From assembly GCF_003334355.1 (NCBI RefSeq), contig NZ_QOWP01000110.1: a DNA stretch of 386 nucleotides; one strand, given 5' to 3'. The stretch is from Escherichia coli (GTDB lineage: Bacteria > Pseudomonadota > Gammaproteobacteria > Enterobacterales > Enterobacteriaceae). The notes under the pieces were generated by a model that saw only the letters and a program-made list of their open reading frames with translations, was not told the DNA's origin and did not search any database. The position numbers were made by a program, and so were the translations under genes. Shown here piece after piece: positions 1-386 of the stretch (the stretch's first letter is position 1; the number at the start of each line of letters is the position of its first letter).

Positions 1-35
1 ATGCTTCCATCGGAAACGATGATCTGGCAGCCTGA
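1..35 (+). CDS. 3' end (last 10 codons plus stop) of an IS3-family orfB transposase, IS629-like; partial, 5' end outside the window
   Basis: Frame with codons starting at position 3 reads A-S-I-G-N-D-D-L-A-A-stop (TGA 33-35); positions 1-2 complete a codon begun outside the window. The stop lies about 40 bp inside the element terminus, as expected for orfB of IS3-family elements. Only 10 codons are visible, so the call depends on the adjacent inverted repeat and on recollection of the IS629 transposase C-terminus. Confidence 0.45.
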   Translation, partial: ASIGNDDLAA

Positions 36-52
36 GTTCACAGATAAAACAC

Positions 53-77
53 TCTCCAGGAAACCCGGGGCGGTTCA
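53..77 (+). repeat. Terminal inverted repeat (right end) of the IS629-like element, about 25 bp; inner boundary approximate
   Basis: + strand 53-77 is tctccaggaaacccggggcggttca; its complement TGAACCGCCCCGGGTTTCCTGGAGA starts with the IS3-family TG dinucleotide and contains the CCCGGG palindrome at 64-69. The 25-bp length is from memory of IS629-type repeats; the other end is not in the window for comparison. Confidence 0.45.
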
Positions 78-216
78 CTTTTCGCCAGTCCTGTAATTCC
101 ATACTTAGATGTCCGTCTATATCAGATGGGCGTCTAAGTTACCAATTCTCGTCTGATGGCTACATACGGCGGTCAGTTTACGCTTACGTGTCAAGAGGGA
201 TTTCTCAGCCCCTCAC
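78..216. other. 139-bp spacer between the two IS ends; no recognisable gene or RNA; probably a remnant of the original insertion target
   Basis: Bounded by the IS629-like terminus (…GGTTCA, 77) and the IS2-like terminus (TGGATTT…, 217). No ORF with a credible start and ribosome-binding site lies wholly inside it. It contains the near-repeat AGATGTCCGTCTA / AGATGGGCGTCTA and a small hairpin at 195-214. Confidence 0.5.
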
Positions 217-257
217 TGGATTTCCCCCTATATTTCCAGACACCTGTTATCACTTAA
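217..257 (-). repeat. IS2-like right inverted repeat (IRR), 41 bp; the outer terminus is at position 217
   Basis: Terminal TGG at 217-219 gives …CCA-3' on the transposase-sense strand, the IS3-family CA-3' end. The repeat contains the orfB stop codon at 228-230. Two positions, 224 and 243, differ from the canonical IRR as recalled. Confidence 0.7.
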
Positions 258-386
258 CCCATTACTGGCCCGCTGCCGTAGATATTCCCGTGGCGAGCGA
301 TAACCCAGTGCACTATGCGGATGCCATTCGTTATAATGCTCGAACGCCTCTGCAAGGTTCTTTGCTGCCGTTAACCCGTCTGGTTT
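228..386 (-). CDS. insD: C-terminal 52 codons plus stop of the IS2 orfB transposase (DDE/integrase-core protein); partial, N-terminus outside the window
   Basis: - strand translation from 386 down to 228: [52 protein letters not shown], with stop TAG (+ strand cta at 228-230). The …[18 protein letters not shown]… segment is the conserved C-terminal motif of IS3-family integrase-core transposases and matches the IS2 InsD C-terminus as I recall it, except Ser for Cys at the codon on + 264-266. Confidence 0.8.

Follow-up and report, generated by a model that had tools for sequence, protein, structure and literature searches.

The termini of two insertion sequences, an IS629-group element and IS2, lie close together in a 386-nt stretch of E. 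coli DNA (hereafter the window), and this arrangement raises the question of whether each element arrived by simple insertion or whether the locus has been rearranged. The original prediction proposed to read the answer from the target duplications: if the bases abutting a terminus, CTT(T) for IS629 and CTCAC for IS2, recur at the far end of the same element, the insertion is simple, and mismatched flanks indicate rearrangement. We find that the logic of this proposal is sound but that it needs to be reframed, since the target of IS629 is itself an insertion sequence and three elements rather than two are present. The window is the scar of nested insertion sequences within a genomic island.

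Element boundaries in the window

The boundaries of the elements were set by homology breakpoints across independent contexts rather than by chance motif matches (Table 1). Window positions 1-77 match, base for base, the final 77 bp of the 1310-bp IS1203/IS629 copies in E. coli PSS-12 (locus L001, 3768-5077) and E. coli O157:H7 strain 1130 (locus L008, 2423-3732), and the DNA beyond the IS1203 end is unrelated between these two genomes. The terminal inverted repeat ends ...GGGGCGGTTCA (final ...CA) at position 77, in agreement with the reference copies, and is followed by CTTT, so that this predicted boundary holds in two genomes with different downstream DNA. Within the element, translation places the 3' end of orfB (...ASIGNDDLAA) with its stop codon at 33-35; the PSS-12 copy is annotated by PGAP as 'IS3-like element IS1203 family transposase'.

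Table 1. Features of the 386-nt window; positions are counted from its first base.
Feature	Position	Strand	Basis
IS629/IS1203 right end (IS3 family)	1-77	+	Identity with 1310-bp IS1203 copies
Bases adjoining the IS629 terminus, CTT or CTTT	78-81		Predicted 3-4 bp target duplication, within ISEc23 tnpA codon 9
ISEc23-family (IS66-family) terminal 110 bp	78-187	-	100% identity with intact copies
GTGTCAAG, predicted ISEc23 8-bp target duplication	188-195		8-bp duplications of intact copies
CP4-type genomic-island intergenic DNA, 29 bp	188-216		Contiguous with the same DNA in PSS-12
CTCAC, predicted 5-bp IS2 target duplication	212-216		Adjoins the IS2 right inverted repeat
IS2 sub-variant right (IRR) end	217-386	-	Homology; orfB 3' end

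On the other side of the spacer, the sequence TGGATTT... from position 217 is the right inverted repeat of IS2, TGGATTTGCCCC..., on the minus strand, and the IS2 orfB on that strand stops inside the repeat, at 228-230; a right inverted repeat (IRR) with an orfB that ends inside it identifies the element as IS2. The same IS2 end adjoins three unrelated contexts (L001 2776, L001 5568 and L007 1801), which confirms the boundary that had been predicted at 217 with CTCAC before it.

The O157:H7 copy of IS1203 had been chosen as a positive control for the target duplication; its flanks differ (AAG vs ATC), and it served for the terminus only. In the same genome (L008, 2330-3740), an ISEc23-type terminus adjoins a fragment resembling an IS629-type orfB, followed by the full IS1203, whose flanks (..TAAG / ATCC..) mismatch, so that this is another nested and rearranged IS629/IS66 arrangement. 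Across 1310 bp, the sole difference between the PSS-12 and O157:H7 copies is the first base of the left end, C for T in PSS-12 (CGAACCG... vs TGAACCG...; L001 3768, 1310 bp upstream of window position 77). This change in the terminal dinucleotide could mean that the end is disabled; alternatively, the event that formed the junction may have left it as a footprint.

The spacer contains the end of an ISEc23 element

The interval between the IS629 and IS2 termini had been taken as simple target DNA. Its 139 bp turn out to be composite, 110 bp of ISEc23 followed by 29 bp of island DNA, and the target of IS629 is the tnpA gene of this third element; the match of 78-187 to the ISEc23 terminus rules out a spacer of plain host DNA. 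In E. coli, thousands of records match the spacer in the region 5' of an IS66-family tnpA gene. Positions 78-187 are 100% identical to intact copies in lambda-like phages, and the match stops exactly at 187. In an alignment, the intact ISEc23 copies of phage 4A7, O145:H28 strain RM12761 and CFSAN061770 (PGAP name, 'IS66-like element ISEc23 family transposase') are identical to the window over 78-187 and all diverge at 188. The terminus at 187, which reads GTAAGCG... on the minus strand, is thus marked by three independent contexts. GTAAGCG is the usual terminus of the IS66 family.

BLAST matches run past 187, and an ISEc23 end farther out was considered; it was rejected because the contexts diverge at 188 in the alignment. 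Past the terminus, patchy similarity between unrelated flanks (window 188-212 vs L004 3611-3640) prolongs the BLAST matches. By manual count, about half of 29 positions in the CFSAN061770 flank match the window, including TTTC.CAGCC. The patchy similarity may be due to chance or to a target preference of ISEc23.

The ATG of tnpA lies at position 102, and eight codons (MELQDWRK) are left before the IS629 insertion. Intact ISEc23 is continuous across this point, reading ...ACGAGGTT/CTTTTCGCC... (the slash marks the insertion point); with tnpA cut after eight codons, it follows that IS629 inserted into ISEc23 tnpA. Intact relatives carry tnpA, tnpB and the transposase gene. This gene set is missing from the window, and the ISEc23 stump therefore cannot move by itself. 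Duplications of 8 bp flank two intact ISEc23 copies (CCATTATA in phage 4A7, GTTTCAGG in the O145 genome), and on this basis GTGTCAAG is the predicted ISEc23 duplication in the window.

On the minus strand, positions 103-139 form an imperfect 16-nt inverted repeat just upstream of, and overlapping, the ISEc23 tnpA start codon. The hairpin folds with a predicted energy of -12.2 kcal/mol (z = -2.07 vs shuffles), a weak signal; it could serve ISEc23 in translation or in transposase binding. An Rfam scan of the window returned nothing above threshold; the AfaR score of 19 bits, set against a gathering score of 100, is chance.

The island target and its only complete-genome relative

Positions 188-216 run on in PSS-12 for 351 more bp of the same intergenic CP4-type island DNA, and this island region is found in about 2,500 complete E. 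coli genomes. An unoccupied site reads ...ggttagagctGTGTCAAGagggatttctcagcccCTCACtcaccggctc... (L005, 4001-4030, of which 4001-4009 are tGTGTCAAG), and the empty site at the position of the window IS2 reads cccCTCACtcaccgg. This island DNA is the original target of both ISEc23 and the window IS2. Fourteen E. coli genomes have an ISEc23 end no more than a few hundred bp from this island site, although none has it at the identical base, and in 31 E. coli genomes the left end of IS629 lies within a few hundred bp of the 5' region of ISEc23 tnpA. Both the island site and the tnpA 5' region may be recurrent targets.

We searched the whole window and the spacer by megablast against complete E. coli genomes, plasmids and phages, and the left 216 bp were found only in E. 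coli PSS-12. This strain is 100% identical to the window over 1-216, and among 5,426 complete genomes it alone has the IS629-ISEc23-island junctions. An exact-pattern search for the IS629-ISEc23 junction found no match in species-representative genomes or metagenome contigs.

PSS-12 thereby serves as the proxy for the far ends of the elements. The left flank of its IS1203 (...GCAGGCGCTGG / ...GCCGAGCAGGCGCTGG, ending ...GCTGG) lies inside an IS2 copy rather than in ISEc23, and that IS2 copy is truncated at a point about 990 bp from its IRR. On the right, IS1203 is followed by CTTTTCGCC, which belongs to ISEc23. The two flanks belong to different elements and mismatch, with neither CTT nor CTTT on the left, and the PSS-12 locus lacks the remainder of ISEc23. 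The left junction, between the IS2 interior and IS1203, is unique to PSS-12. As judged from sequence, this IS1203 locus indicates a deletion rather than a simple insertion, which by proxy agrees with the alternative of rearrangement in the original prediction.

The neighborhood of this locus in PSS-12 (L001, 1900-7300, between cobU and tmaR/yeeA) is an island almost wholly reduced to IS material. The IS-rich span is bounded by a truncated TonB-dependent receptor gene and an EutP/PduV-like gene, and its order is an IS3-family fragment, truncated IS2, IS1203, the ISEc23 stump, 380 bp of island DNA and a full IS2.

The full IS2 of PSS-12 (1331 bp) lies 351 bp further right than the window IS2 and has TCTCC on both sides; its empty site reads gcttcTCTCCctgtcc, which shows the 5-bp duplication directly. 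The duplication sizes on which the original prediction was built are therefore correct for IS2 as well as for IS629, which duplicates 3-4 bp (PMC3271280).

A probable deletion to the left of IS629

If ISEc23 and IS629 had kept their left sides, two reciprocal junctions would be predicted. We queried both as chimeric sequences, and the returns were two-piece joins or partial matches only: neither ISEc23 ...GAGGTTCTTT (CTTT) joined to the IS629 IRL, nor island ...GTGTCAAG joined to the far end of ISEc23, had a contiguous match in the 5,426 complete E. coli genomes, PSS-12 included. Their absence from every complete genome argues that in PSS-12 the other 2.4 kb or so of ISEc23 and the island DNA on its left were deleted, not inverted elsewhere.

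Taken as a whole, the sequence comparisons make it probable that the window is a nested scar with a later deletion to the left of IS629 and a separate IS2 event. The sequence shows that ISEc23 inserted into the intergenic DNA of the island, with its terminus at 187, that IS629/IS1203 then entered tnpA at codon 9, with 110 bp of ISEc23 left on its right, and that an IS2 copy adjoins the island DNA 29 bp past the ISEc23 end. To judge from PSS-12, the DNA to the left of IS629 was probably deleted later, namely the other 2.4 kb or so of ISEc23 together with its left flank and a large part of the island, and such a deletion accounts for hybrid flanks with no target duplication. The deletion could have been an IS629-mediated adjacent deletion, possibly one associated with the IS-excision enhancer (IEE), or the product of recombination between two IS629 copies. 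Where PMC9943667 cites Kusumoto et al. 2011, IS629-adjacent deletions ranging from a few nucleotides to >40 kb are tied to IEE. The window IS2 probably represents an insertion event separate from that of the PSS-12 IS2, given its different allele and a position 351 bp from that of the PSS-12 copy.

The far ends are read here from one relative, and the PSS-12 deletion could postdate the split from the window lineage. In that event the window IS629 might lie in an ISEc23 that is still complete, flanked by duplicated CTT(T). This leads to the alternative that both elements are simple insertions, with IS629 in an otherwise complete ISEc23 and CTT(T) duplicated, CTCAC duplicated around IS2, and PSS-12 a later deletion derivative. 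The left flank of IS629 would then read ...ACGAGGTTCTT(T), with the rest of ISEc23 tnpA-tnpB-transposase to its left, and the far flank of IS2 would be CTCAC followed by TCACCGGCTCAG / TCACCGGCTCAGTCTCAGG. The right flank of IS629 does run unbroken into ISEc23 up to its true terminus, and the PSS-12 IS2 is a clean insertion in the same 380-bp stretch. Matching 3-4 bp duplications are also common enough for IS629, being present at 21 of 47 sites in four O157:H7 genomes (about 45%) and absent from the other 26 (PMC3271280). We nevertheless regard simple insertion of both elements as unlikely, as neither predicted reciprocal junction occurs in the 5,426 complete E. coli genomes and the sole genome with an identical right junction has a mismatched left flank. 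The corresponding junction of the IS2 left end with CTCACTCACCGG (CTCAC, TCACCGG...) is likewise absent from complete E. coli genomes; this absence is uninformative, the near junction being absent too.

Origin of the IS2 junction

The IS2 junction itself was found neither by megablast of the whole window and the spacer in complete E. coli genomes, plasmids and phages nor by exact-pattern search in species-representative genomes, viral contigs and metagenome contigs, and a 33-aa open reading frame across it had no exact-protein record. The IS2 end is more familiar. It is identical at 169 of 170 positions (99.4%) to a common sub-variant that 514 records carry at 99% identity or more, the one mismatch falling at IS2 position 8. 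Three of the 170 positions (8, 55 and 63) differ from the full IS2 of PSS-12, and six from its truncated canonical IS2. At positions 55 and 63 the window has the state of the commonest sub-variant, and only the change at position 8 is private. This G-to-C change at window position 224 (TGGATTTG to TGGATTTC) lengthens a C run from GCCCC to CCCCC. It occurs in none of the 5,426 complete E. coli genomes, whose best matches differ from the window there only, and could reflect either a genuine private mutation or an error of sequencing within the C run. The contrast between 3 differences in 170 positions of the IS2 end and none in 216 positions of the adjoining flank favors an IS2 copy of separate origin, which either inserted on its own or was brought in by recombination.

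The junction could alternatively derive from a PSS-12-like ancestor by loss of 351 bp at the right end of its IS2, through adjacent deletion or IS2-IS2 recombination. In that case the far flank of IS2 would be TCTCCCTGTCC... (TCTCCCTGTCCTCACG), with no CTCAC duplication. Locus and IS2 orientation are indeed the same in PSS-12, and the window differs by the loss of exactly 351 bp up to the IS2 terminus; the breakpoint is ambiguous by 2 nt (C/T), which fits microhomology joining, although homology of this length at a junction easily arises by chance, and IEE-type deletions beside IS3-family elements are documented (PMC9943667). Against this stand the differences at IS2 positions 8, 55 and 63 next to 216 identical bp, and the commonest sub-variant state of positions 55 and 63, which suggests a different copy. 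We therefore doubt a 351-bp loss. The more specific form of this history, an adjacent deletion anchored at the IS2 end or an IS2-IS2 recombination in a PSS-12-like lineage that left a G8C-mutated IS2 repeat beside an IS1203 whose left terminal base is mutated too in PSS-12, appears more doubtful still. If it were true, IS-excision-type repair would have turned the locus into a small graveyard of immobilised elements.

An assembly artefact, that is, a repeat-induced misjoin in the draft combined with a sequencing error at 224, is very improbable: the junction and the 224 change do occur in no other sequence of the collections searched and the change extends a C run, but the IS2 inverted repeat begins precisely at the join, as in a real insertion, the window elsewhere matches a complete genome at every base, and misjoins normally lie inside repeats, not at exact termini. 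We thus retain a separate IS2 event as the probable origin of the junction.

Relation to known elements and implications

IS629/IS1203, ISEc23 and IS2 are all well-known insertion sequences of E. coli, and the locus shows no new kind of event: IS-dense islands regularly contain nested insertions, truncations and IS-associated deletions. The IS629 end resembles that of the O157:H7 IS629/IS1203 copies in its identical terminus, in the 1310-bp length of the relative's element and in its position inside another mobile element, and the mismatched flanks in PSS-12 recall the 26 of 47 O157:H7 sites that lack duplications. Unlike those cases, the junction lies in codon 9 of ISEc23 tnpA and occurs in only one of 5,426 complete genomes. 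The ISEc23 segment shares with intact members of this IS66-family element (tnpA-tnpB-transposase, 8-bp duplications) the 100% identical terminal 110 bp, the GTAAGCG end and the tnpA start, but only the 110-bp stump is kept. The IS2 end includes the C-terminus of orfB, which stops within the right inverted repeat, as expected of this IS3-family element (1331 bp, 5-bp duplications), and as a sub-variant it departs from canonical IS2 at 6 of 170 positions, including the private G8C in the inverted repeat.

For the reading of such loci, the main consequence is that a spacer between IS ends may itself be an IS remnant, so that duplication tests need the true pre-insertion sequence. The three nested elements yield exact, checkable predictions of their duplications, with little import beyond annotation. 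Its occurrence in one of 5,426 complete genomes makes the IS629-ISEc23-island junction a rare marker of lineage, which may be of use in strain typing or in tracing the decay of CP4-type islands.
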